Source: Candidatus Micrarchaeota archaeon (GTDB lineage Archaea > Micrarchaeota > Micrarchaeia > Micrarchaeales > CABMGC01). From it: 64,000 nucleotides of DNA. The stretch spans positions 51,052 to 115,051 of the forward strand of contig DAHXNY010000001.1 in NCBI GenBank assembly GCA_027365175.1. The letters run 5' to 3'. The notes beneath the pieces were generated by a model. It was given only the letters and a program-made list of their open reading frames with translations. It was not told the origin of the DNA and did not search any database. Positions 8,608 through 63,036 of this stretch are shown in pieces. A program made the position numbers and the translations under genes. The first letter of the stretch is position 1; every line of letters starts with the position of its first letter.

Positions 8608-8795
8608 AAAATCGTATCTGAATGGAATTATGATGATATAAAAGGCTTTTCTTCTGTATTAGACGAATGCGAAGGATTATTTATATTGAATGCCATAATA
8701 AGTTTTGCCCGTAACTGACCGTGGAAATGTTTGTGGAAAATTCGGATACGTGCTGGCAGTCAAGGAGTATGCCTTAACAGTTGATGGAAGAATGA

Positions 8796-8887
8796 TGGGC
8801 CCGAGGAGATTTGAACTCCTGACCTACGGCTAACTTAGGCTTGCGCCGTATAAGACCGCCGCTCTGACCAGGCTGAGCTACGAGCCC
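8796..8887 (-). tRNA. tRNA-Ile(UAU) with a 17-nt canonical (37/38) intron
   Basis: Hand-folded cloverleaf: acceptor GGGCTCG/CGGGCCC, D arm GCTC..GAGC, T arm AGGAG-TTCAAAT-CTCCT, anticodon loop CT-TAT-A|intron|A. The intron (8832-8848) forms a bulge-helix-bulge with central helix CTTA/TAAG, 3-nt bulges TAC and TTA, and an inner stem GGC-GCAA-GCC. The body is close to typical archaeal tRNA-Ile. No CCA is encoded. Confidence 0.85.
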
Positions 8888-8981
8888 ATGATTTATAGGG
8901 ATTAAGTTGCTTTATTTATATGAGTTTCTGTTTAACGGACTTATTTTATATAGCAGTTAATATAATATTATATGTGATTTT

Positions 8982-10283
8982 ATGGATCTTGGAGAAGGCC
9001 TTAGGAAAGCTATCGCAAAACTCAGCGGAGCTACCATAATAGACGCCAGGACCATACGCGAATTCAACAAGGAGCTTCAGCGCGCACTGATATCTTCAGA
9101 CGTGGAGCTCAACCTGGTGATGGCGCTTACCGGCAAGATAGAGAACGCGGCGCTTAAGGAGAAGCTCCCTGACGGGATAAGCCCTAAGGAGTACATAACC
9201 AACATGGTCTACGAGGAGCTTGTGAACCTCATGGGAAAGGATTACTCTCCTGAGATAAAGCCTAAGCGCATACTGCTCATGGGGATATACGGATCGGGTA
9301 AGACCACAACCACAGGAAAGCTTGCTAAATTCTATCAGGACAGAGGCCTGGGCGCAGGAGTAATATGCTGTGACATATCAAGGCCTGCCGCTTATGAGCA
9401 GCTGGAGAGCGTGGCCAAGCAGGCAGGAGTGGGATTCTACGGGATAAAGGGCGGAAAGGATGTAAAGGAGATTGTTAGCAAAGGATTGGAAGAGCTGAAG
9501 AACAAGAAGGTAATCATATGCGATTCTAGCGGAAGGAGCGGTATGGATGCGGAGATGATAACGGAGCTTAAGGAGATTGATGCCTCATTCAGGCCGGATG
9601 AAAGGTTCCTTGTGATAAATGCAGATATAGGACAGGTTGCAGGAAGGCAGGCGCGCGAGTTCGGCTCTGCCGTCGGAATAAACGGAGTGATAGTTACAAA
9701 GATGGATGGGTCTGGAAGAGGAGGGGGAGCACTCAGCGCTGTGAATGAATCCGGAGCCAAGGTAGCTTTCATAGGCACAGGAGAGAAACTTGCAGACCTG
9801 GAGCTTTATGATTCGAAGAAATTTGTCGGCAGGCTGCTGGGAATGCCTGACATAGAGTCGCTTATTGCAAAGGTAAACGAGGCGGCGAAGAGCGTCGGCG
9901 TGAAGGAGATGACTGATATAAACGAACTTAACTTTGACATGTTCTACCAGCAGTTAAAAGCGATGTCAAAGATGGGGCCCATGAAGAACGTATTGGGAAT
10001 GATGGGCCTTGCGGATGTTCCCAAGGAGATGGTAGAAGGAGGTGAGAGCAAGCTTAAGATTTACGAGTCTATAATAGGGTCTATGACAAAAGCGGAGAGG
10101 AACGATGAGAAATTGGTCAGGAATCCGGATAGGATAAGAAGAATCGCAAAAGGAAGCGGGAGGACGGAAAAGGACGTGAGAGGTTTGCTGAATGACTTCA
10201 ACAGGATGAAGAAGATTGCAGGACTTATGAAGAATGACAGGGCATTCAAGAAAAACTTCTCAAAATTTGCAGGAATGAAATGA
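8982..10283 (+). CDS. srp54: signal recognition particle protein SRP54
   Basis: GTPase motifs GIYGSGKTTT, DSSGR and TKMDG, plus a Met-rich M domain. SD GTGA lies 4 nt upstream of the ATG. Confidence 0.95.
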   Translation: MDLGEGLRKAIAKLSGATIIDARTIREFNKELQRALISSDVELNLVMALTGKIENAALKEKLPDGISPKEYITNMVYEELVNLMGKDYSPEIKPKRILLMGIYGSGKTTTTGKLAKFYQDRGLGAGVICCDISRPAAYEQLESVAKQAGVGFYGIKGGKDVKEIVSKGLEELKNKKVIICDSSGRSGMDAEMITELKEIDASFRPDERFLVINADIGQVAGRQAREFGSAVGINGVIVTKMDGSGRGGGALSAVNESGAKVAFIGTGEKLADLELYDSKKFVGRLLGMPDIESLIAKVNEAAKSVGVKEMTDINELNFDMFYQQLKAMSKMGPMKNVLGMMGLADVPKEMVEGGESKLKIYESIIGSMTKAERNDEKLVRNPDRIRRIAKGSGRTEKDVRGLLNDFNRMKKIAGLMKNDRAFKKNFSKFAGMK

Positions 10284-12101: not shown

Positions 12102-13541
12102 TCAGTTGACATAGTACCACAGGGTGCCGTACCTGCTATCCTCTATCTTCAACGAATAGTTATCCAGCAGCTTGTTCCTTATCACATCTGCTTCTTCGTA
12201 CTTCTTCTCCGTCCTTAATCTGTTCCGCTCTTCTATAAGCTTGCGCTCTTCGCCACCTATTGCCCGCTTGTACTTTCCATCCTCGAATATGCCTATGACT
12301 GAAGAGAGCTCGACCACCTTTGATACTGCGTTCTTCTTTGCTGCGCTGTTCAAGGTAGTATTGGTCTCTGCGATCTTCCTGAAATCCTCTATTGCAGAAT
12401 GGAGCTTGGTCAATGCAAGAGGAGTATTGAAATTGTCATTCATAGCTTCCGTGAATTCCTTTTCCAGGAATGCAGTTACTTCCTGCAGCTCACTGGCAGA
12501 GTCGTCATCTTCGGTTTCACCGGCGTTGTATAGCATGCTCATTGACGATCTTAGGAAGTTGAGCATGCTCGCCGTCTCTTCGAGAAGGCTTTCCCTGTAC
12601 TCCATGTCCTTGATATAGTGCGTCCTTGCGACCATCAGCCTTATCGTCTCCGGATCGTATTTCTCAAGTGCCTGCCTTATTGTAACGAAATTGTGCAGGC
12701 TTTTGGACATCTTGTCCTCGCCTACATTCATAGTGCCCGCATGTATCCAGTATCTTACGAATGGCTTAACCCCGAATGCTGCTTCCGCCTGTGCTATCTC
12801 ATTTGAATGGTGAGGGAAGATCAGCTCTCTCGCCCCTCCGTGTATATCGTATGTGGCTCCGAATATCGCGTGTGTCATTGCAGTATCTTCTATGTGCCAG
12901 CCTGGCCTGCCTTCGAACTCCTTTGATTTGCCATGCAGGTTGAGAGTTATCTTCCATGACGGCTCCCCGGGTTTTGCTGCCTTCCATAATGCAAAATCAT
13001 ATTCGTGCCTCTTGCCTGCCTTGGGTTCTATCCTGTGCTTTTCCAGCTCCTCAAGCTTCATTCCTGAAAGTTTGGTGTAGTCGGGGAACTTTGCAACATC
13101 GTAGTAGATGTCGCTGTCGAGTTCGTATGCATATCCCTTATCTATAAGGAGCTGTATCTGCAGCTTTATCTCATCCATGTAGTCATGGGATTTCAGATAC
13201 TTGTCCACATTCTTAGTGACTCCGAGCTTCTCCATATCTTCCATTAGGCGCTGCATATAGAGATTTGACAGCTCTTCGGGAGATACATTCCTTTCATGAG
13301 ACCTCCGGATTATCTTGTCATCTACATCGGTTATGCTTTGGATATAATTCACAGTATATCCTGAATGCCTCAGCCACCTGACTATTATGTCGTAATTTAT
13401 GTACGCCTTTGCATGCCCCAGGTGCGCATCGTCATATACGGTCTGGCCGCATACAAAGATATTTACCTTCCCGCTTGGAAATACAAGAAGGTCGTTGCTT
13501 CTCGTCAAGGTATTATACGCGGTTATTTTGTTTTCAGCCAT
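12102..13541 (-). CDS. cysS: cysteinyl-tRNA synthetase
   Basis: HIGH-type motif HLGHAKAY, KMSKS motif (DKMSKSLHN) and the class I CysRS pattern over 479 aa. Confidence 0.95.
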   Translation of the reverse strand: MAENKITAYNTLTRSNDLLVFPSGKVNIFVCGQTVYDDAHLGHAKAYINYDIIVRWLRHSGYTVNYIQSITDVDDKIIRRSHERNVSPEELSNLYMQRLMEDMEKLGVTKNVDKYLKSHDYMDEIKLQIQLLIDKGYAYELDSDIYYDVAKFPDYTKLSGMKLEELEKHRIEPKAGKRHEYDFALWKAAKPGEPSWKITLNLHGKSKEFEGRPGWHIEDTAMTHAIFGATYDIHGGARELIFPHHSNEIAQAEAAFGVKPFVRYWIHAGTMNVGEDKMSKSLHNFVTIRQALEKYDPETIRLMVARTHYIKDMEYRESLLEETASMLNFLRSSMSMLYNAGETEDDDSASELQEVTAFLEKEFTEAMNDNFNTPLALTKLHSAIEDFRKIAETNTTLNSAAKKNAVSKVVELSSVIGIFEDGKYKRAIGGEERKLIEERNRLRTEKKYEEADVIRNKLLDNYSLKIEDSRYGTLWYYVN

Positions 13542-22426: not shown

Positions 22427-24250
22427 ATGGCAAAGAACGCAATAACTCATGTTTACCTGAACGGAAGAGACATAGGGACCGTAGAGGATCCTCAGAAGTT
22501 CGTCAATGAGATAAGGAGTGCAAGAAGGACGGGAGTGATTTCGGGAGAGATCAACGTTGCACACTATGCAAAGCAGCATTACATCAACATAAACAGCGAC
22601 CGCGGAAGGGTAAGGAAGCCGTATGTAATAATAGAAGGCGGCAGGTCAAAGCTCACAAAGGAGGTAATAGAGAAGCTTAAGAGCAAGGAGATAAATTTCA
22701 ATTATCTGTTCAGGAACGGAATAGTAGAATACTTGGATGCTGAAGAGGAGGAGAATGCGCTCGTCGCCTTCAACGAAAGCGACATAACAGAGAGGCACAC
22801 CCATCTCGAAGTAGACATAGCGTCGATATTCGGATTCACAGTAGCTACTTCCCCTTATGCTGAGCACAACAGCATCGCAAGGCATGCCATGCTTTCAAAC
22901 TTCATAAAGCAGGCGCAGGGATTGTATGCGATTAACTTCAACCAGAGATTCGATTCAAGAAGCTATCTGCTCTTCTATCCGCAGGTTCCTATAGTCAATA
23001 CCGTTCCTTACAGGAAGACCAATATCCAGAAGCACCCTAGCGGCCAGAATTTTGTAGTGGCGCTTTCAACATATTATGGATACAACATGCAGGACGCAGT
23101 AGTCCTGAACAGGGCTGCCGTTGAGAGAGGGGCAGGAAGAAGCCTCTTCTACAAGACATACTCGGATGAAGAGAGAAGGTATCCAGGAGGGCAGAGAGAC
23201 AGACTGAAGGTCCCGCCTCCTACGGCAGAAGGATACATGGGAGAGCACTTCTATTCAAAGCTCAGCGACGACGGAATCATAGAGCCTGAGATGGACGTCC
23301 AGGAAGGGGATGTATTGATAGGCAAGGTATCCCCTCCTAGATTCCTTGAAGAGAGCATGGGACCTAGCGGAATAGAGGAGAAGGTAAGGGATGATTCAAC
23401 AGTACTTAAGACTGGGGAGACAGGGATTGTGGACAGTGTAATGATAACAGAGTCCCCTGGTGCAACCAAGCTAGTAAAAATAAGAGTGCGCGGCCTCAGG
23501 GTCCCTGAGAACGGAGATAAGTTTGCAAGCAGGCACGGACAGAAGGGAGTAACATCTCTGATAGTACCTCCTGAAGATATGCCATTCTCAGAATCAGGCA
23601 TAATACCTGATCTGCTGCTAAATCCACACAGCGTTCCCTCTAGAATGACGTTTGGCCACCTGCTTGAGGAGCTTGCAGGAAAGGCAGGAGCTGTAAGCGG
23701 AAGGACTATAGATGGCACAGCATTTGCGCAGGACGGTGTGGAAAGAATGGCAGAGTATGGCAGGATGCTTGAGGAGAATGGTTTTGACAAGTACGGAGAG
23801 GAGGAGATGTACGACGGCATAACAGGCATGAAGTTCAAGGCCAAGGTCTTCACAGGAGTCGTTTACTACAACAGGCTGTACCACATGGTAAGCAATAAGA
23901 TACAGGTAAGAAGCAGAGGAAAGGTACAGATACTGACGCACCAGCCTACAGAAGGAAAGGCAAGGCAGGGAGCGCTCAGATTCGGAGAGATGGAACGAGA
24001 TACGCTTATAGGGTATGGCGCAAGCCTTTTGCTGAAGGAGAGGCTGCTTGACCAGAGCGACAAGACAACAGTGCTCATATGCAGGCAGTGCGGCAACATC
24101 GGCTATTACGACCATATAAAGAGGGTGAATGTCTGCCCAATAGACAAGGGCTCCGACTTCGTTGACGTGGAGATAAGCTATGCATTCAAGGTATTGCTTG
24201 ACGAGATAAAGTCTCTGCACATAATGCCTAGAATGAAGGTAAATGAGTGA
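22427..24250 (+). CDS. rpoB1: RNA polymerase subunit B' (C-terminal part of the split B subunit)
   Basis: Rpb2 C-terminal pattern: GDKFASRHGQKG, PSRMTFG, RFGEMERD and the Zn ribbon CRQCG..CP. The ORF track start is 22415. ATG 22427 is preferred because it sits behind GAGTGA-N4. Confidence 0.95.
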   Translation: MAKNAITHVYLNGRDIGTVEDPQKFVNEIRSARRTGVISGEINVAHYAKQHYININSDRGRVRKPYVIIEGGRSKLTKEVIEKLKSKEINFNYLFRNGIVEYLDAEEEENALVAFNESDITERHTHLEVDIASIFGFTVATSPYAEHNSIARHAMLSNFIKQAQGLYAINFNQRFDSRSYLLFYPQVPIVNTVPYRKTNIQKHPSGQNFVVALSTYYGYNMQDAVVLNRAAVERGAGRSLFYKTYSDEERRYPGGQRDRLKVPPPTAEGYMGEHFYSKLSDDGIIEPEMDVQEGDVLIGKVSPPRFLEESMGPSGIEEKVRDDSTVLKTGETGIVDSVMITESPGATKLVKIRVRGLRVPENGDKFASRHGQKGVTSLIVPPEDMPFSESGIIPDLLLNPHSVPSRMTFGHLLEELAGKAGAVSGRTIDGTAFAQDGVERMAEYGRMLEENGFDKYGEEEMYDGITGMKFKAKVFTGVVYYNRLYHMVSNKIQVRSRGKVQILTHQPTEGKARQGALRFGEMERDTLIGYGASLLLKERLLDQSDKTTVLICRQCGNIGYYDHIKRVNVCPIDKGSDFVDVEISYAFKVLLDEIKSLHIMPRMKVNE

Positions 24251-24254
24251 TGCT

Positions 24255-26798
24255 ATGAAAACCGAGGTAATCAATTATATAAAATTCGGAGTGATGAACC
24301 CCGAGTATGTCAAGGCTCTTGGGGTAGTGAAGCTTACCGTTCCGGACACATATAATGAGGACGGATACCCTATAGACGGAGGGCTGCTTGACCAGCGCCT
24401 CGGTGTGATTGACCCTGGATTGATATGCAAGACCTGCGGAGCGCGTGCCAAGTCCTGCCCGGGACATTTTGGCAGGATAGAGCTCGTAAGGCCTGCGATA
24501 CACTCTGAATTCGGGAAGACCCTGTACATGATACTGCAATCGACATGCAGAAACTGCAACAGGCTGCTTCTGGACGATGAGAGCCTTGCAAAGTACAGGG
24601 GAGAGAAGCTTGACCCTGACAGCATAGCCGTTGAAGGAGAAGAGGGAGCTGTAGAGGTCAAGAGCGCGATGCTTAAGAGACTTAAGGACATAAAGAAGTG
24701 CGAGAGATGCGGCACTCAGAAGAAGAAGCTTAAGTTCTCGCTGCCAACATACTTCTACGTTGAAGATTACAAGCTTAAGCCTAATGAGATAAGAGATATG
24801 GTATCCAAGATAAGCAATGATGATCTTGAGATACTCGGCATAGATGCTGAGAATGCGAGGCCAGAATGGCTCATACTTGATATACTGCTCGTGCCTCCTG
24901 TAAATGTAAGGCCGTCTATCACTCTTGAGAGCGGAGAGAGGAGCGAGGACGAACTTACACACAAGCTCGTAGACATAATGAGGATAAACCAGAGGCTGGA
25001 ACAGAACCTCAATGCAGGCGCACCGCAGATAATAATAGACGATCTTTGGGAGCTCCTCCAGTATCACGTTACTACATACTTCAACAATGAGACATCGAAT
25101 ATTCCTCCTGCAAGGCACAGGAGTGGAAGGGCCCTTAAGACCCTTACCCAGAGACTGAAGGGCAAGGAGGGAAGATTCAGGTACAACCTCAGCGGAAAGC
25201 GTGTCAACTATTCAGCAAGAACCGTAATCAGCGTTGATCCAAATGTAGATATAGACGAGGTAGGGGTGCCGTTTGCCATAGCTTCCAAGCTTACCGTCCC
25301 GTTCTATGTGACCGAGTGGAACATAGAGCATGCAAAGAAGATGCTCATGTCGAATGATTATCCTGCTGTGCTGAATGTGATAAGCAAGGATGGCAAGAGA
25401 AAGCGCGTCATAGATACCAATAAGGAAGAGATAGAGAAGGAACTTTCTGCAGGAGACATAATGGAGAGGCAACTTGTCGATGGAGATATAGTGCTTTTCA
25501 ACAGGCAGCCTTCGCTTCACCGTATGTCGATCATGGCCCACAAGGCAAAGGTGCTTCCTGGAAAGACCTTCAGGATCAACCTCTGCGTAGCGGCACCTTA
25601 TAACGCAGACTTCGACGGAGACGAGATGAACCTGCACGTGCCGCAGACGCTTGAGGCAAGGGCGGAAGCAAAGATACTGATGATGTCATCACACCAGGTC
25701 TTCTCCCCTAAGGAAGGAGATGTGATAATAGGTACGGAGCAGGATGGAATAACAGGAGCGTATGAAATGACTGATGAGGATGCTTACGTTACAAAAGAGG
25801 AGGCCGTTTACCTTCTTTCAGTAGCAGGGATATATGACTTGCCAAAAGAGGGCAAGAACGGCATGTACAGGGCCAGAGATGTCTTCTCTATGCTCTTCCC
25901 TAAGGGACTGGACTTTGAAGCCGAGACCAAGAGAGGGCACATCAAGATAAAGGATGGCCAGCTTGTAGAGGGAAGGATGGACAATGGCACAATCGGAAGA
26001 GGCGGCAACAAGCTCTTCATGAAGATACGCACCGATTACGGATTCGAGGAGCTCAAGAAGTTCATATACAGCTCTGCAAAGATGGTAAACGCATATGTAA
26101 CCCTGATGGGCTTCAGTCTTGGAGTAAAGGAGTATGTGAATGATGAAAGGCTTGTAAGGGATAGGAAGCGCATGCTTGACGAGACCTTCGAGAAGATAAA
26201 TAAGCTCATAGCGGATTACAACGACGGAAAGCTTGAGGCACTCATAGGTTACACCCTGAAGAGCTCTCTGGAAAGGATGATAATAGCGGAATTGAACCTG
26301 GTGAGAGACAAAGCAGGAAAGGATATAATCAAGACAAAGGCAGATGACAAGGAGAAGAATACGGCTATGGACATGGTATCTTCAGGTGCGAGAGGAAACA
26401 TACTCAACGTAGTACAGATGATGATGTTCCTTGGACAGCAGGCAACAATATCAGGAGGCAGGATAAACCGTGGTTACGCCACAAGAAGAGCCCTGCCGCA
26501 CATACTTCCTGGAGATCTCTCCCCTAAGGGAAGAGGTTTTGTAACGACATCGTTCTACGGAGGCCTTGACCCTATAGATTTGTTCATGCATGCAGTAGGT
26601 TCAAGAGGTTCTGAGATATACAAGGCGTTGCTGACGGCAAGAAGTGGATATCTTTATAGGAGATTGTCCAACGCGCTGCAGGACTACTATGTAGATATAG
26701 ACTATAGCGTGAGGGACGCGAGCAACAACCTTATAGAGACGGAGTATGGAGGAGACAGGCTGGACCCTATGTACACGAAGGTAATTGAGGTAGAGTGA
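24255..26798 (+). CDS. rpoA1: RNA polymerase subunit A'
   Basis: Zn motifs CKTCG..CPGHFG and the catalytic [10 protein letters not shown]. The ORF track start is 24243. ATG 24255 is preferred because it sits behind GAGTGA-N4. Confidence 0.95.
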
Positions 26799-40346: not shown

Positions 40347-40394
40347 AAAGTAAAATTAGAAATTAAAATAAAAAGGGGAAAAGAAATAATCAGT

Positions 40395-40673
40395 TTACCT
40401 GTAAAGGTCTTCCTGCTCTTCCCTTGTAGCATCGTTTGCGCTCTGCGAAGCAGATCCTACCAGAACCACGTCTCCGACGTTCTTTACGTTCTTGTAGAGT
40501 ATGCTCTTCTTCTTCAGTGCCGACTTTACGTCGCTCTTCAGATTCTTCCAAGGGGACATAAGAAGCCTGCTTACCTCTCCCTTTTCCAAGTCCAATATTA
40601 CGTCTTGAACCTCTCCAAGGTACTGCCCATTGTCGCTGTATATATCCATTCTGTATATTTCAGATATTCTCAT
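40395..40673 (-). CDS. PRC-barrel domain protein
   Basis: The pattern IYSDNGQYLGEVQDVILDLEKGEVSRLLM is typical of small archaeal PRC-barrel proteins. Confidence 0.7.
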   Translation of the reverse strand: MRISEIYRMDIYSDNGQYLGEVQDVILDLEKGEVSRLLMSPWKNLKSDVKSALKKKSILYKNVKNVGDVVLVGSASQSANDATREEQEDLYR

Positions 40674-40745
40674 CCAATCGCCTTGATATATAGAAAGGTA
40701 AAGAATTTATAAATCTTATTAGATTTCGGGGTTACTGGAAGCGTA

Positions 40746-48280: not shown

Positions 48281-49033
48281 CTATCTAATATAAGGCATTC
48301 CTTCTGAAGGTTTTGATGGATCGCGTGTATCTATAGACTGCTCTATCTCCTTTATCACGCGCTCGGTCTCCTTTTTGAGTTTGTCCAGATTTTCAAGCTC
48401 TATCTTCGTGCCTATTATATTCTCCATTACGCGCAGGACGGCTCTGGCTGCGCTTGCGTCTATCTCTAGGAAGCCTGTCTCACCCATAAGGCATGCTGAA
48501 GGTATGCCATACTTCTGTGCGAAGACAGGTATGAGCCCTGCTGATCCCCATATAGTGCCTGTTATCTTCCCGAATATTACGCCATTCTTTTCCAGCTCCT
48601 TCCTCATGGTCTTGTCATTCGAAACAGCAAAGACCCTTGGAGATTCCGTATATTTGTTTGACGCGTTGTATCCGCCTATTGTATAGATGCGCGTTCCACC
48701 GAGTTTCTTGAAAAACTTGACTATCAGCTCATTTATCTCATACTGACCTTCCGATGATGGAGACTGCGTATCTCCAAGAAGTACCAGTATATCTTTTCCT
48801 TTTATGTTTTTGTGATAGAATCTGTTGCTTACGGCTCTGAAGCCTCCGCTCTTGAGCATCAGGACCTGGTGCAAAAAGTATGGAGAATAGAGAGTTGCGA
48901 ATCTCTCGGCCTTTATCGATTTCCTTATATGCTCCGCAGCAAGATTGCCGACGTTTCCTATGCCTGGCAGCCCTACTATAAGTATTGGATCCTTTAGCTT
49001 CTTTTTCTTGTAGTATATCTTGGTTTTGTCCAG
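48281..49033 (-). CDS. PAC2-family (proteasome assembly chaperone-like, COG1938) protein, apparent CTG start
   Basis: The ORF track gives only 48281..48874 (TTG). The same frame continues upstream as LDKTKIYYKKKKLKDPILIVGLPGIGNVGNLAAEHI, the hallmark PAC2 N-terminus. It contains no ATG/GTG/TTG back to an in-frame TGA. CTG 49033 sits behind GTGA-N4. Confidence 0.75.
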   Translation of the reverse strand: MDKTKIYYKKKKLKDPILIVGLPGIGNVGNLAAEHIRKSIKAERFATLYSPYFLHQVLMLKSGGFRAVSNRFYHKNIKGKDILVLLGDTQSPSSEGQYEINELIVKFFKKLGGTRIYTIGGYNASNKYTESPRVFAVSNDKTMRKELEKNGVIFGKITGTIWGSAGLIPVFAQKYGIPSACLMGETGFLEIDASAARAVLRVMENIIGTKIELENLDKLKKETERVIKEIEQSIDTRDPSKPSEGMPYIR

Positions 49034-49037
49034 GCAA

Positions 49038-49796
49038 TCACTTGTTCACTTTCTTAAACGCGTACTGTATCTCCGATGAATGCTTTTCCAATACCGCTTC
49101 GGCACTCTTTATCCTCGCTTCTGCCTTTGTGTAATCGGAATCTGTTGATGTCAGGGAGTAGTGCGGCGCTCCCAGGTATCTGGTTTCGTTGCCCATTGCA
49201 GCTATCTCCTTCAGGAGCGTCTTTATCAGCGCTATGCCTTTCTGGGGGTTTGTAACGTTCATCTCCAGATTGTATGAAACAGTATATGTTTTGGGTTTTA
49301 TGTTTTTCTTTGCTGCTTCATAGAATGCTTCCTTGAAGGTATTGTCGCCGCAAGCTGCAAGTGGATCCTTGTCTTCGTAAGCAAGAGTGAGCAATTCGTG
49401 GTAGGTTAGTATGTTCAGGGGTATCTTGCTTATTATCTCCTCTTTAGCATTCTCTTTCTTTGCGAGCTTTGCCGTGCTGTCGAATATCGCCTTTGCCCTT
49501 TTCTCGGCGCTGTAATCGTTTATCTTATCCTTCTTCTCCTTCTGGGTTACCTTTTTCAGTGAAATATCTACTGCATTCTTCGTCGGATCGATGAAGATTA
49601 CCTTTGCTACATCCTGCTGGCCTTCCCTTATGAATTCGTGTATGTTCTTTATCCATCCTGAAGATACTTCAGAGATGGGAAGATATGCATCAACACCATA
49701 CTCTTCGAGCTTGCAGTACGCACCGTGGGGGGTAACCTTTGTTATCTTTATTATTACGAACTCTCCCTGCACGGGAAGCTCTTTTTTTCTCAACAT
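49038..49796 (-). CDS. eif2a: translation initiation factor aIF-2 alpha subunit
   Basis: N-terminal S1 domain (LPVQGEFVIIKITKV..GAYCKLEEYG.DAYLPISEVS), then the helical and alpha-beta domains. Confidence 0.9.
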   Translation of the reverse strand: MLRKKELPVQGEFVIIKITKVTPHGAYCKLEEYGVDAYLPISEVSSGWIKNIHEFIREGQQDVAKVIFIDPTKNAVDISLKKVTQKEKKDKINDYSAEKRAKAIFDSTAKLAKKENAKEEIISKIPLNILTYHELLTLAYEDKDPLAACGDNTFKEAFYEAAKKNIKPKTYTVSYNLEMNVTNPQKGIALIKTLLKEIAAMGNETRYLGAPHYSLTSTDSDYTKAEARIKSAEAVLEKHSSEIQYAFKKVNK

Positions 49797-50668: not shown

Positions 50669-50743
50669 TAGCGAGAGGTGGATTTGAACCACCGATCTCC
50701 GGGTTATGAGCCCGGCGGGCACTCCAGTCTACCCTACCTCGCT
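50669..50743 (-). tRNA. initiator tRNA-Met(CAU)
   Basis: Hand-folded with an A1:U72 acceptor end (AGCGAGG/TCTCGCT). The anticodon stem CCGGG/CCCGG carries three consecutive G:C pairs above the loop CTCATAA. T arm GGTGG-TTCAAAT-CCACC. Confidence 0.85.
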
Positions 50744-62156: not shown

Positions 62157-62507
62157 ATGGAACCACAAAGCAACCAGCAAAAAGAGATAGAGAAGCTTGC
62201 AAAGGACTACCAGGTCGCACAGGAGCAGCTTCGACTAGTCACGCTGCAGCTAGAGCAGCTCAGGGCCCAGAAGGCAGAGCTTGACGGTGCAAAGGAGCAG
62301 CTAGAGAAGGCTACGGGCAAGACCTACTCCACTATAGGGGGGATAATGGTAGAGACTGACAAGACAAAGGCACTGGAAGACGTAAAGGACAGGGCAGAAC
62401 TCACCCAGGCAAGGCTGCAGTCGATAAACAAGCAGTATACCGAGCTGAGAGCAAAGGAGAAGGATCTGAACGCCAAGATAGCTGACATATACAAGGGCAG
62501 CCAGTAA
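62157..62507 (+). CDS. pfdB: prefoldin beta subunit
   Basis: 116 aa. Two coiled-coil segments flank a beta-hairpin core (KTYSTIGGIMVETDK). SD GGGTGA lies 4 nt upstream of the ATG. Confidence 0.75.
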   Translation: MEPQSNQQKEIEKLAKDYQVAQEQLRLVTLQLEQLRAQKAELDGAKEQLEKATGKTYSTIGGIMVETDKTKALEDVKDRAELTQARLQSINKQYTELRAKEKDLNAKIADIYKGSQ

Positions 62508-62526
62508 TTCTTACACGGGTGAGCCG

Positions 62527-63036
62527 CTGAAATACTACGATATTGTCAATACAGAAGCAAGCGAACAGCTCTCAAAAAGGCTTGGGTTCACCAAACTGCT
62601 CGTATGCGGACATGAGGTGGACATTAAGGCAGCAGCGCAGTCCTACCCAAAAAAAACAATAGCAACCGGGACGAACGAAGGCCTTCTTGCGAAATCACTG
62701 AAGGACAGAAATACCATAGGTGTACTGCCCACAAGCATGCCTTCAAAGAAGCTGATAGCGATGCTTTCGGAACACGACAAAACCCTATTCGTAAATGTAA
62801 ACACCGTAATCACTGCAGATCCGAAGCAGCAGCAGAAGCTGATATACCTGTATCGAAAAACAATGCACTACTGCAAGCAATTCAGGGTTAACGTCTGCCC
62901 TGTGACATTGGCGGGATCCGAGCATGAGCTTCTTTCAGCAAAACAGCTCATTGTACTGATAAAATTTCTCGGCTTCACCGGTGACGAGAAAAAAGCTCTA
63001 AGCACGCTGGGTTTTCTACATGGCAAAACGAATTAA
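62527..63036 (+). CDS. rnp3: RNase P protein component 3 (Rpp30), apparent CTG start
   Basis: The ORF track starts at GTG 62617. The same frame upstream reads KYYDIVNTEASEQLSKRLGFTKLLVCGHE, an Rpp30-like N-terminus (compare MKFFDMHV types). It contains no ATG/GTG/TTG back to TAG 62479. CTG 62527 sits behind GGGTGA-N4. The C-terminal part matches the Rpp30 pattern (KQFRVNVCPVTLAGSEHELLSAKQL). Confidence 0.7.
   Translation: MKYYDIVNTEASEQLSKRLGFTKLLVCGHEVDIKAAAQSYPKKTIATGTNEGLLAKSLKDRNTIGVLPTSMPSKKLIAMLSEHDKTLFVNVNTVITADPKQQQKLIYLYRKTMHYCKQFRVNVCPVTLAGSEHELLSAKQLIVLIKFLGFTGDEKKALSTLGFLHGKTN

Follow-up and report, generated by a model that had tools for sequence, protein, structure and literature searches.

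Rare near-cognate start codons are known in bacteria, one example being the AUU of infC, and CUG, AUU, AUC, and AUA are allowed by translation table 11. Here, we analyze a gene from Candidatus Micrarchaeota archaeon (GenBank assembly GCA_027365175.1) which codes for a PAC2/PbaB-like proteasome assembly chaperone and appears to start with CUG. The gene is encoded on the minus strand of a 64,000 nucleotide (nt) stretch of contig DAHXNY010000001.1 (positions 51,052 to 115,051), referred to as the window, to which all coordinates below apply unless another contig is named. It follows the gene for the alpha subunit of translation initiation factor aIF2 (aIF2-alpha; Table 1). As in the bacterial cases, a single conserved gene would have a start codon outside of AUG, GUG, and UUG, with a good Shine-Dalgarno motif before it. 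The PAC2 gene differs from these cases in that it belongs to an archaeon (DPANN, Micrarchaeota) with initiation based on aIF1, aIF1A, and aIF2. The infC codon is associated with autoregulation by IF3; a comparable logic for the PAC2 gene is only hypothetical. CUG initiation in eukaryotes is similar with respect to the near-cognate codon and to the delivery of the initiator tRNA by a factor of the e/aIF2 type, but it depends on scanning and on the Kozak context, whereas the PAC2 gene has a Shine-Dalgarno-like motif and is located inside a polycistronic operon.

AUG-to-CUG switches are extremely rare and account for two of 61,358 reconstructed AUG starts, and non-AUG starts tend toward stronger or more conserved Shine-Dalgarno motifs (PMC5622118). 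In a ribosome profiling study of Haloferax volcanii, approximately 30% of the putative alternative initiation sites were near-cognate and were set aside by the authors (PMC7261190). In the literature, we found no report of a CUG start, nor any report on start codons, in Micrarchaeota. A study of reinitiation at non-canonical codons (PMC4648390) deals with a eukaryotic channel protein (Shaker Kv) and with scanning of the Kozak type, and was set aside for this reason. The second described system of relevance is archaeal and bacterial termination-reinitiation (Huber et al., 2019, PMC6728339; PMC10666635), which in Haloferax volcanii and E. coli requires overlaps or very short gaps; in Haloferax volcanii, reinitiation is reduced by 40–60% at 13–14 nt and is nearly lost beyond ~20 nt (PMC10666635). 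The aIF2-alpha/PAC2 pair is similar in that the genes are co-directional, stop and start are only a few nt apart, and the Shine-Dalgarno-like motif sits in the 3′ end of the upstream gene. The pairs studied so far, however, have canonical starts, mostly in ATGA or TGATG overlaps, whereas the downstream start of the window pair is a CUG, and its coupling is putative. At the protein level, the closest described systems are PbaB (PF0014, PDB 3VR0) and PbaA (PDB 3WZ2) from Pyrococcus furiosus, which belong to the same family as the product of the window gene, in which the PAC2 domain is complete. This likeness bears on the identity of the protein and not on its anomalous start codon.

Based on sequence comparison, we consider it highly probable that the PAC2 gene starts at CTG 49033–49031 and that CUG serves as its near-cognate initiation codon. 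The PAC2 frame on the minus strand reads TGA (49048–49046) ACA AGT GAT TGC CTG (49033–49031) GAC AAA ACC AAG ATA TAC TAC. None of the four sense codons between the TGA and the CTG is a near-cognate start, and the junction continues downstream of aIF2-alpha as TGATTGC-CTG-GACAAAACC. From the CTG up to TTG 48874–48872, the frame encodes LDKTKIYYKKKKLKDPILIVGLPGIGNVGNLAAEHIRKSIKAERFATLYSPYF. A first-pass annotation of this stretch had reported that the frame is devoid of ATG, GTG, and TTG before TTG 48874, which we confirm (57 start-less sense codons, counted from the TGA); the in-frame TGA upstream exists as well, but had been placed one base off, at 49047–49045. The same annotation had recognized the N-terminus of the PAC2 protein in the 53 codons which precede TTG 48874, and this holds. 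The CTG-started protein of 250 amino acids (aa) matches the Pfam domain PAC2 (PF09754) with residues 18–230, which covers profile positions 1–214 of 215 and scores 137.3 bits (cut-off 25.8), whereas the TTG-started form matches only profile positions 55–214 and scores 90.3 bits. The 53 codons correspond to profile positions 1–54, including the GLPGIGNVG segment, and because this part of the match is lost without them, they represent real coding sequence.

The score against TIGR00162 (197.1 bits) narrowly misses the curated NCBIfam cut-off of 200, so that we make a family-level assignment only. The protein matches PbaB over residues 4–232 (E = 3.4e-40) and PbaA with E = 1.1e-14. An AlphaFold model of the CTG-started protein has a mean predicted local distance difference test score (pLDDT) of 87.5. 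In the disputed N-terminal segment, the model has strands at residues 5–8, 17–21, and 43–49 and a helix at residues 25–40, with pLDDT values of 87–97 over residues 5–49.

Table 1. Features of the aIF2-alpha/PAC2 junction and its two genes (window coordinates)
Feature	Position	Strand	Remark
PAC2/PbaB-like proteasome assembly chaperone gene, re-defined	48281..49033	-	250 codons, from CTG to stop TAG 48283–48281
CTG, proposed initiation codon (CUG)	49031..49033	-	aligned with ATG/GTG of orthologues; CTG throughout the close clade
TTG, codon of Leu54	48872..48874	-	first canonical start in the PAC2 frame; internal codon, not a start
TGA closing the PAC2 frame upstream	49046..49048	-	in frame, minus-strand reading
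aIF2 alpha subunit gene	49038..49796	-	upstream partner, 252 aa; Pfam EIF_2_alpha and S1
TGA, stop of aIF2-alpha	49038..49040	-	4 nt (TTGC) upstream of CTG
GTGAT, Shine-Dalgarno-like motif	49037..49041	-	3 nt (tgc) upstream of CTG; overlaps the aIF2-alpha stop; invariant in seven lineages
Invariant 11-nt block AACAAGTGATT	49036..49046	-	last two aIF2-alpha codons, stop, and two non-coding bases; identical in seven lineages
TTG, out of frame	49035..49037	-	not conserved: TTT in L007/L022, TTC in L009

A protein search returned approximately 1,500 relatives, mostly from Micrarchaeota. Distant orthologues (at most 62% identity) start with M-x-x-T-K-I-Y-Y-K-K, and the window protein, read as L-D-K-T-K-I-Y-Y-K-K, aligns to them gap-free at Met-1. 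In an alignment of 30 protein sequences, the position encoded by CTG is M1 in 28 of the 29 orthologues and V1 in the remaining one. The DNA of relatives was collected from the loci of the three closest database proteins and from species representatives in the genome collection, and the gene order L44e, aIF2-alpha, PAC2 was encountered in all fetched relatives. Fourteen outgroup loci (48–60% identity) were read as DNA and have ATG (12 loci) or GTG (2 loci) in the CTG column. The CTG is homologous in position with the ATG and GTG starts of the orthologues.

In the close clade, which consists of the window lineage and six related lineages, the codon is CTG without exception, and all 23 contigs (from NCBI, ENA, and Logan assemblies, representing many samples) show TGA-N4-CTG. 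The junction reads AAC AAG TGA ttgc CTG in the window, in L018 (97% protein identity to the window), and in L019/L001-006 (95%). The other lineages differ in the spacer, which is ttga in L020 (92%), tttg in L021 (89%), ttcg in L009-016 (87%), and tttc in L007/L022 (79%). An independent Logan assembly of the strain of the window (L017) is identical through the junction (ttgcCTG), which makes a sequencing error very unlikely. In L020 (DAHUYR010000041.1, 1488–1503), the spacer TTGA places an in-frame TGA directly before the CTG, and the frame opens exactly at the CTG. In this lineage, the N-terminus can thus be supplied neither by an upstream in-frame start nor by a fusion. When metagenome contigs were searched for the junction pattern in order to find further clade members, only chance matches were obtained, along with L043, which corresponds to the already known L007. 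The CTG of the close clade and the ATG or GTG of the outgroups stand in the same alignment column, and this comparative evidence supports initiation at CUG, as had been proposed in the first-pass annotation. By parsimony, a single change from ATG or GTG to CTG would have occurred at the base of the clade.

The coding frame is under purifying selection from codon 2 onward. For codons 2–53, the pairwise ratio of nonsynonymous to synonymous substitution rates (dN/dS) is 0.01–0.05, with dS ranging from 0.7 to saturation, whereas both other frames have dN/dS >1.6 wherever it could be computed. The frame is intact in all seven lineages (250–251 codons). Even the codons immediately following the CTG fit this picture: the changes at codons 2–5 are AAA/AAG, ACC/ACA/ACG, a D-to-E change (GAC to GAA), and a single K-to-T replacement, which match the x-K-T-K/T of the outgroup. 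Codon 1 itself is the sole invariant codon among the 15 Leu columns which are conserved in six lineages (none of the 14 internal ones is invariant), and it is one of only five invariant codons among the 89 conserved columns whose amino acid has four- or six-fold degeneracy. The codon at TTG 48874 (column 54) varies among the relatives between TTG, CTC, CTT, and CTG.

Conservation at the nucleotide level extends to the region upstream of the CTG. Of 20 third-codon positions at the 3′ end of aIF2-alpha, two are invariant, and both are located within the block AACAAGTGATT. The two bases which follow the block (49035–49034) vary, and CTGGA is then invariant again (AACAAGTGATT-NN-CTGGA). Both the CTG and the block with GTGAT are conserved as nucleotides, and the succession of an invariant block, variable bases, and an invariant CTGGA fits the pattern of a ribosome-binding site which is followed by a start codon.

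The putative ribosome-binding motif is not restricted to this junction but stands before many long ORFs, and GTGAT-N3-ATG is the most frequent such layout of the window. GTGAT-N3-ATG/TTG is found before the starts at 8982, 10532, 22427, 24255, 26803, 31481, 33098, 39807, and 50082, CTGAT-N3-ATG at 1893, 16099, 49796, and 52863, and versions in which the spacer is N4 or N2 at 13541, 51556, and 30192. The most common triplet three bases past GTGAT in the window is ATG (8 of 94 sites, compared to a background of 1.8%). With GTGAT-tgc-CTG (native junction AACAAGTGATTGC-CTG), the PAC2 gene has the same geometry as the ATG-started genes. The GTGA-ttgc-CTG of the first-pass annotation, here specified as GTGAT at 49041–49037 with the spacer tgc, is thus present, and the recurring (G)GTGA-N4-start which had been noticed there is found, in the form GTGAT-N3-start, before at least nine other genes of the window. 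GUGAU is complementary to AUCAC, a sequence found toward the 3′ terminus of archaeal 16S rRNA. The ribosome-binding motif of the organism centers on (G/C)TGAT, followed by a fixed 3-nt spacer, and would correspond to GAUCA at the 16S 3′ terminus instead of the classic GGAGG. At several operon junctions of the window, the motif takes in the TGA stop of the upstream gene (for example, aaaTGAGTGATattATG at 22427 and aaaTGAGTGATgctATG at 24255).

No significant RNA structure was detected in 80 nt around the PAC2 start (minimum free energy −6.8 kcal/mol, z = 0.01), and no long reading frame of the window has a further [GC]TGAT-N3-CTG site at its 5′ end. Eight stop-to-stop translations, including six whose start-less stretches span 27–86 codons, were compared to Pfam, and no domain extended into a start-less stretch. 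Two frames, 40347–40712 and 62482–63036 (both plus strand), have start-less 5′ stretches of 86 and 45 codons, respectively, and show neither a Pfam match nor a Shine-Dalgarno-like motif with N3-CTG; the former overlaps an ATG-started open reading frame (ORF; 40395–40673) on the opposite strand. These frames are probably not genes or have later starts.

The aIF2-alpha gene ends with AAG AAA GTG AAC AAG TGA. Throughout the clade, 4 nt separate its stop from the PAC2 start; the corresponding distances of the 14 outgroup loci range from −8 to +17 nt, and most of those across 21 loci are between −8 and +4. Because the distance is short in 21 of 21 loci, the tight linkage between aIF2-alpha and PAC2 is ancestral. 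The 4-nt gap is compatible with reinitiation, which may help a weak start codon. We envisage that the ATG or GTG start of PAC2 changed to CTG in the ancestor of the clade and was kept since. Initiation at CUG would probably be assisted by the GUGAU, which has the 3-nt spacing preferred by the organism and is built into the last codon of aIF2-alpha and its UGA stop. In addition, ribosomes which finish aIF2-alpha 4 nt upstream would probably re-initiate locally at the CUG. The weak codon may then set a low output of PAC2 relative to aIF2-alpha.

The initiator tRNA presumed for this start is the standard one with a CAU anticodon, so that residue 1 would be Met. A tRNA-Met(CAU) is encoded between the TFE-like and the GINS genes (50669–50743, minus strand) and shows features of archaeal initiators, namely an A1:U72 pair and GGG/CCC closing the anticodon stem. 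Its anticodon is a normal CAU, which could read a CUG start only with a mismatch at the first position. Among the other tRNAs of the window, ARAGORN reports a tRNA-Ile with anticodon TAT (95 nt, 8794–8888, minus strand), which probably contains an intron. An isoleucine tRNA with UAU is unusual; most archaea decode AUA with a modified CAU tRNA.

Several points weigh against initiation at CUG or temper how firmly it can be asserted. CUG is a poor start codon in E. coli, with ~1–2% of the activity of AUG (bioRxiv 10.1101/063800), and a review on archaeal translation initiation names only AUG, GUG, and UUG, with no mention of CUG (PMC7531240). The spacer TTTG of L021 (JAKAUU010000034.1, 1443–1460) creates an in-frame TTG directly before the CTG (GTGAT-TTG-CTG), and this lineage could use TTG as start, though without a spacer after GTGAT. 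The near-identical L009 lineage has TCG at this position. Retention of the CTG by chance has a probability of ~5%, and its invariance, being only moderately unlikely as a chance outcome, is suggestive but not decisive; the conservation of the sequence around it says more. That ribosomes actually initiate on the CUG is deduced from comparing sequences. The pairing of GTGAT with an anti-Shine-Dalgarno sequence is putative, as the 16S gene is not located in the window, in which Rfam detects tRNAs only. Finally, the Shine-Dalgarno motif and the coupling would both contribute, in a proportion which is not separable from sequence.

Among the competing explanations, we consider first those which dispense with a near-cognate start altogether. 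The first-pass annotation had offered as its alternative that the dinucleotide CC at 49034–49033 contains a 1-nt insertion, caused by a sequencing or assembly error, and that TTG 49037 is the true start. While it is correct that removal of one C results in M-LDKTKIYY in frame, the position of this TTG reads TTT in L007/L022 and TTC in L009 with the PAC2 frame kept, and the independent assembly L017 as well as all 23 of the 23 clade contigs agree on TGA-N4-CTG. The insertion is thereby refuted, and we assign to it a vanishingly small probability. An overlapping gene in the frame of TTG 49037 (ORF 48738..49037, 99 aa) was also considered and was rejected by the dN/dS values of the two alternative frames (>1.6 wherever computable). 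A protein which begins at an internal canonical codon (TTG 48874, ATG at codon 59, or similar), with the upstream 53 codons being an untranslated relic, is what public gene calls in the clade imply (192, 203, 231, and 234 aa), and TTG 48874 is indeed the first canonical start. The called starts, however, are at codon 18, 20, 48, or 59 depending on the lineage, and none of these codons is conserved as a start. Such a start would remove profile positions 1–54 of PAC2 together with three strands and the first helix of the model. With the dN/dS of 0.01–0.05 at saturated dS for codons 2–53 and the modelled strands and helix within residues 5–49, the internal TTG start, which the first-pass annotation had named as one outcome that would overturn CUG initiation, is excluded, and we consider internal starts in general to be very improbable. 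Loss of the canonical start is a common route to gene inactivation, and the gene might be a recently inactivated pseudogene. This is extremely unlikely given that the complete frame of 250–251 codons is intact in seven lineages with saturated synonymous sites, that purifying selection is strong, and that the upstream ribosome-binding block is conserved.

A programmed +1 frameshift or readthrough at the stop of aIF2-alpha (AAG-UGA) would generate an aIF2-alpha-PAC2 fusion for which no PAC2 start is needed. Relative to aIF2-alpha, PAC2 is read in the +1 frame, the sequence around the stop (AACAAGTGATT) is invariant, and the window has no stop between the shift site and the CTG, all of which would suit a fusion. 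In L020, however, where the PAC2 frame reads GAT TGA CTG, ribosomes shifting by +1 at AAG-UGA would translate a single codon before terminating, and the two possible linker codons are free to vary (TGC/TTC/TCG/TTG/TGA). AAG is unable to re-pair in the +1 frame (AGU), and at the very position of the CTG, each outgroup orthologue has an ATG or GTG of its own, in various frames and at various distances relative to the aIF2-alpha stop. We thus see very little likelihood for a fusion. We also compared the junction to programmed +1 frameshifting of the prfB type, which has an open +1 frame in all members and a slippery codon in the P-site; the TGA of L020 and the AAG/AGU pairing do not agree with this type. 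A different near-cognate codon just past the CTG might be used instead (AAG at codon 3 or 5, ATA/ATC at codon 6), the CTG then being untranslated or conserved by chance. ATA and ATC are near-cognate as well and are present at codon 6 in all lineages, but codons 2–5 evolve as coding sequence and match the N-terminus of the outgroup. The GTGAT would be 18 nt from codon 6, compared to the N3–N4 spacing found elsewhere in the window, and the codon which aligns with the orthologous starts and is also invariant is the CTG. We consider such a downstream start improbable. Beyond it, no start or frame other than that of the CTG is usable, and initiation at CTG 49033–49031 is the reading that we retain.

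Two side observations concern the end of the PAC2 gene. The C-terminal tripeptide Y-I-R (48284–48292, minus strand) is invariant in 30 of 30 aligned orthologues, and the tail before it is disordered in the model (pLDDT <50, residues 237–250). This tripeptide is reminiscent of proteasome-docking C-terminal motifs. Furthermore, a tRNA-Gly(CCC) gene (48280–48207, minus strand) abuts the PAC2 stop TAG 48283–48281 with zero spacer. The PAC2 mRNA and this tRNA are probably co-transcribed, in which case 5′ processing of the tRNA would cleave right where the coding sequence ends. The gene called next in L001 lies 77 nt past PAC2, a gap which could accommodate the same tRNA.

The organisms of the clade are uncultured and are known only from metagenome-assembled genomes, obtained from samples of the acid-mine-drainage type (for example, those behind ERZ27237xxx, SRR7268657, and GCA_027333905.1), and the public calls for their PAC2 proteins are all short at the N-terminus compared to the 250–251 aa found here (231, 234, and 203 aa for P0001, P0002, and P0003, which are the three closest database proteins, and 192 aa for L017). 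The start chosen is an internal GTG, ATG, or TTG and differs from call to call; the GLPGIGNVG segment is lost, as are up to three core strands. The truncation will recur with gene callers restricted to ATG, GTG, and TTG, so that recognition of the CTG start is of use for annotation.

Whether the CUG is held by selection as a control device, with PAC2 being made mainly by ribosomes which have just finished aIF2-alpha at the UGA within GUGAU because the CUG would be too weak to initiate efficiently by itself, or is merely tolerated, is a further question. We regard the control device as a tentative and rather doubtful idea. If it were true, the amount of PAC2 made would follow that of aIF2-alpha at a fixed, small ratio and might respond to start-codon stringency (levels of aIF1 and aIF2), and the system would parallel, in an archaeon, the logic of the infC AUU. 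It would also represent an evolutionarily conserved CUG start in the Archaea, for which the above review lists only the three canonical codons.

Because rare near-cognate starts are already known in bacteria and eukaryotes, the PAC2 case extends this phenomenon and does not establish a new principle. It is well supported as a rare representative of a known kind, found in a lineage of archaea, and its Shine-Dalgarno-like motif contains a stop codon. The natural junction AACAAGUGAUU-NN-CUG may be used to test start-codon stringency and termination-reinitiation in archaea. As a comparative case, the PAC2 gene suggests that an archaeal initiation system of the aIF2 type, with its eukaryote-like factor, can live with a CUG start over long evolutionary time.

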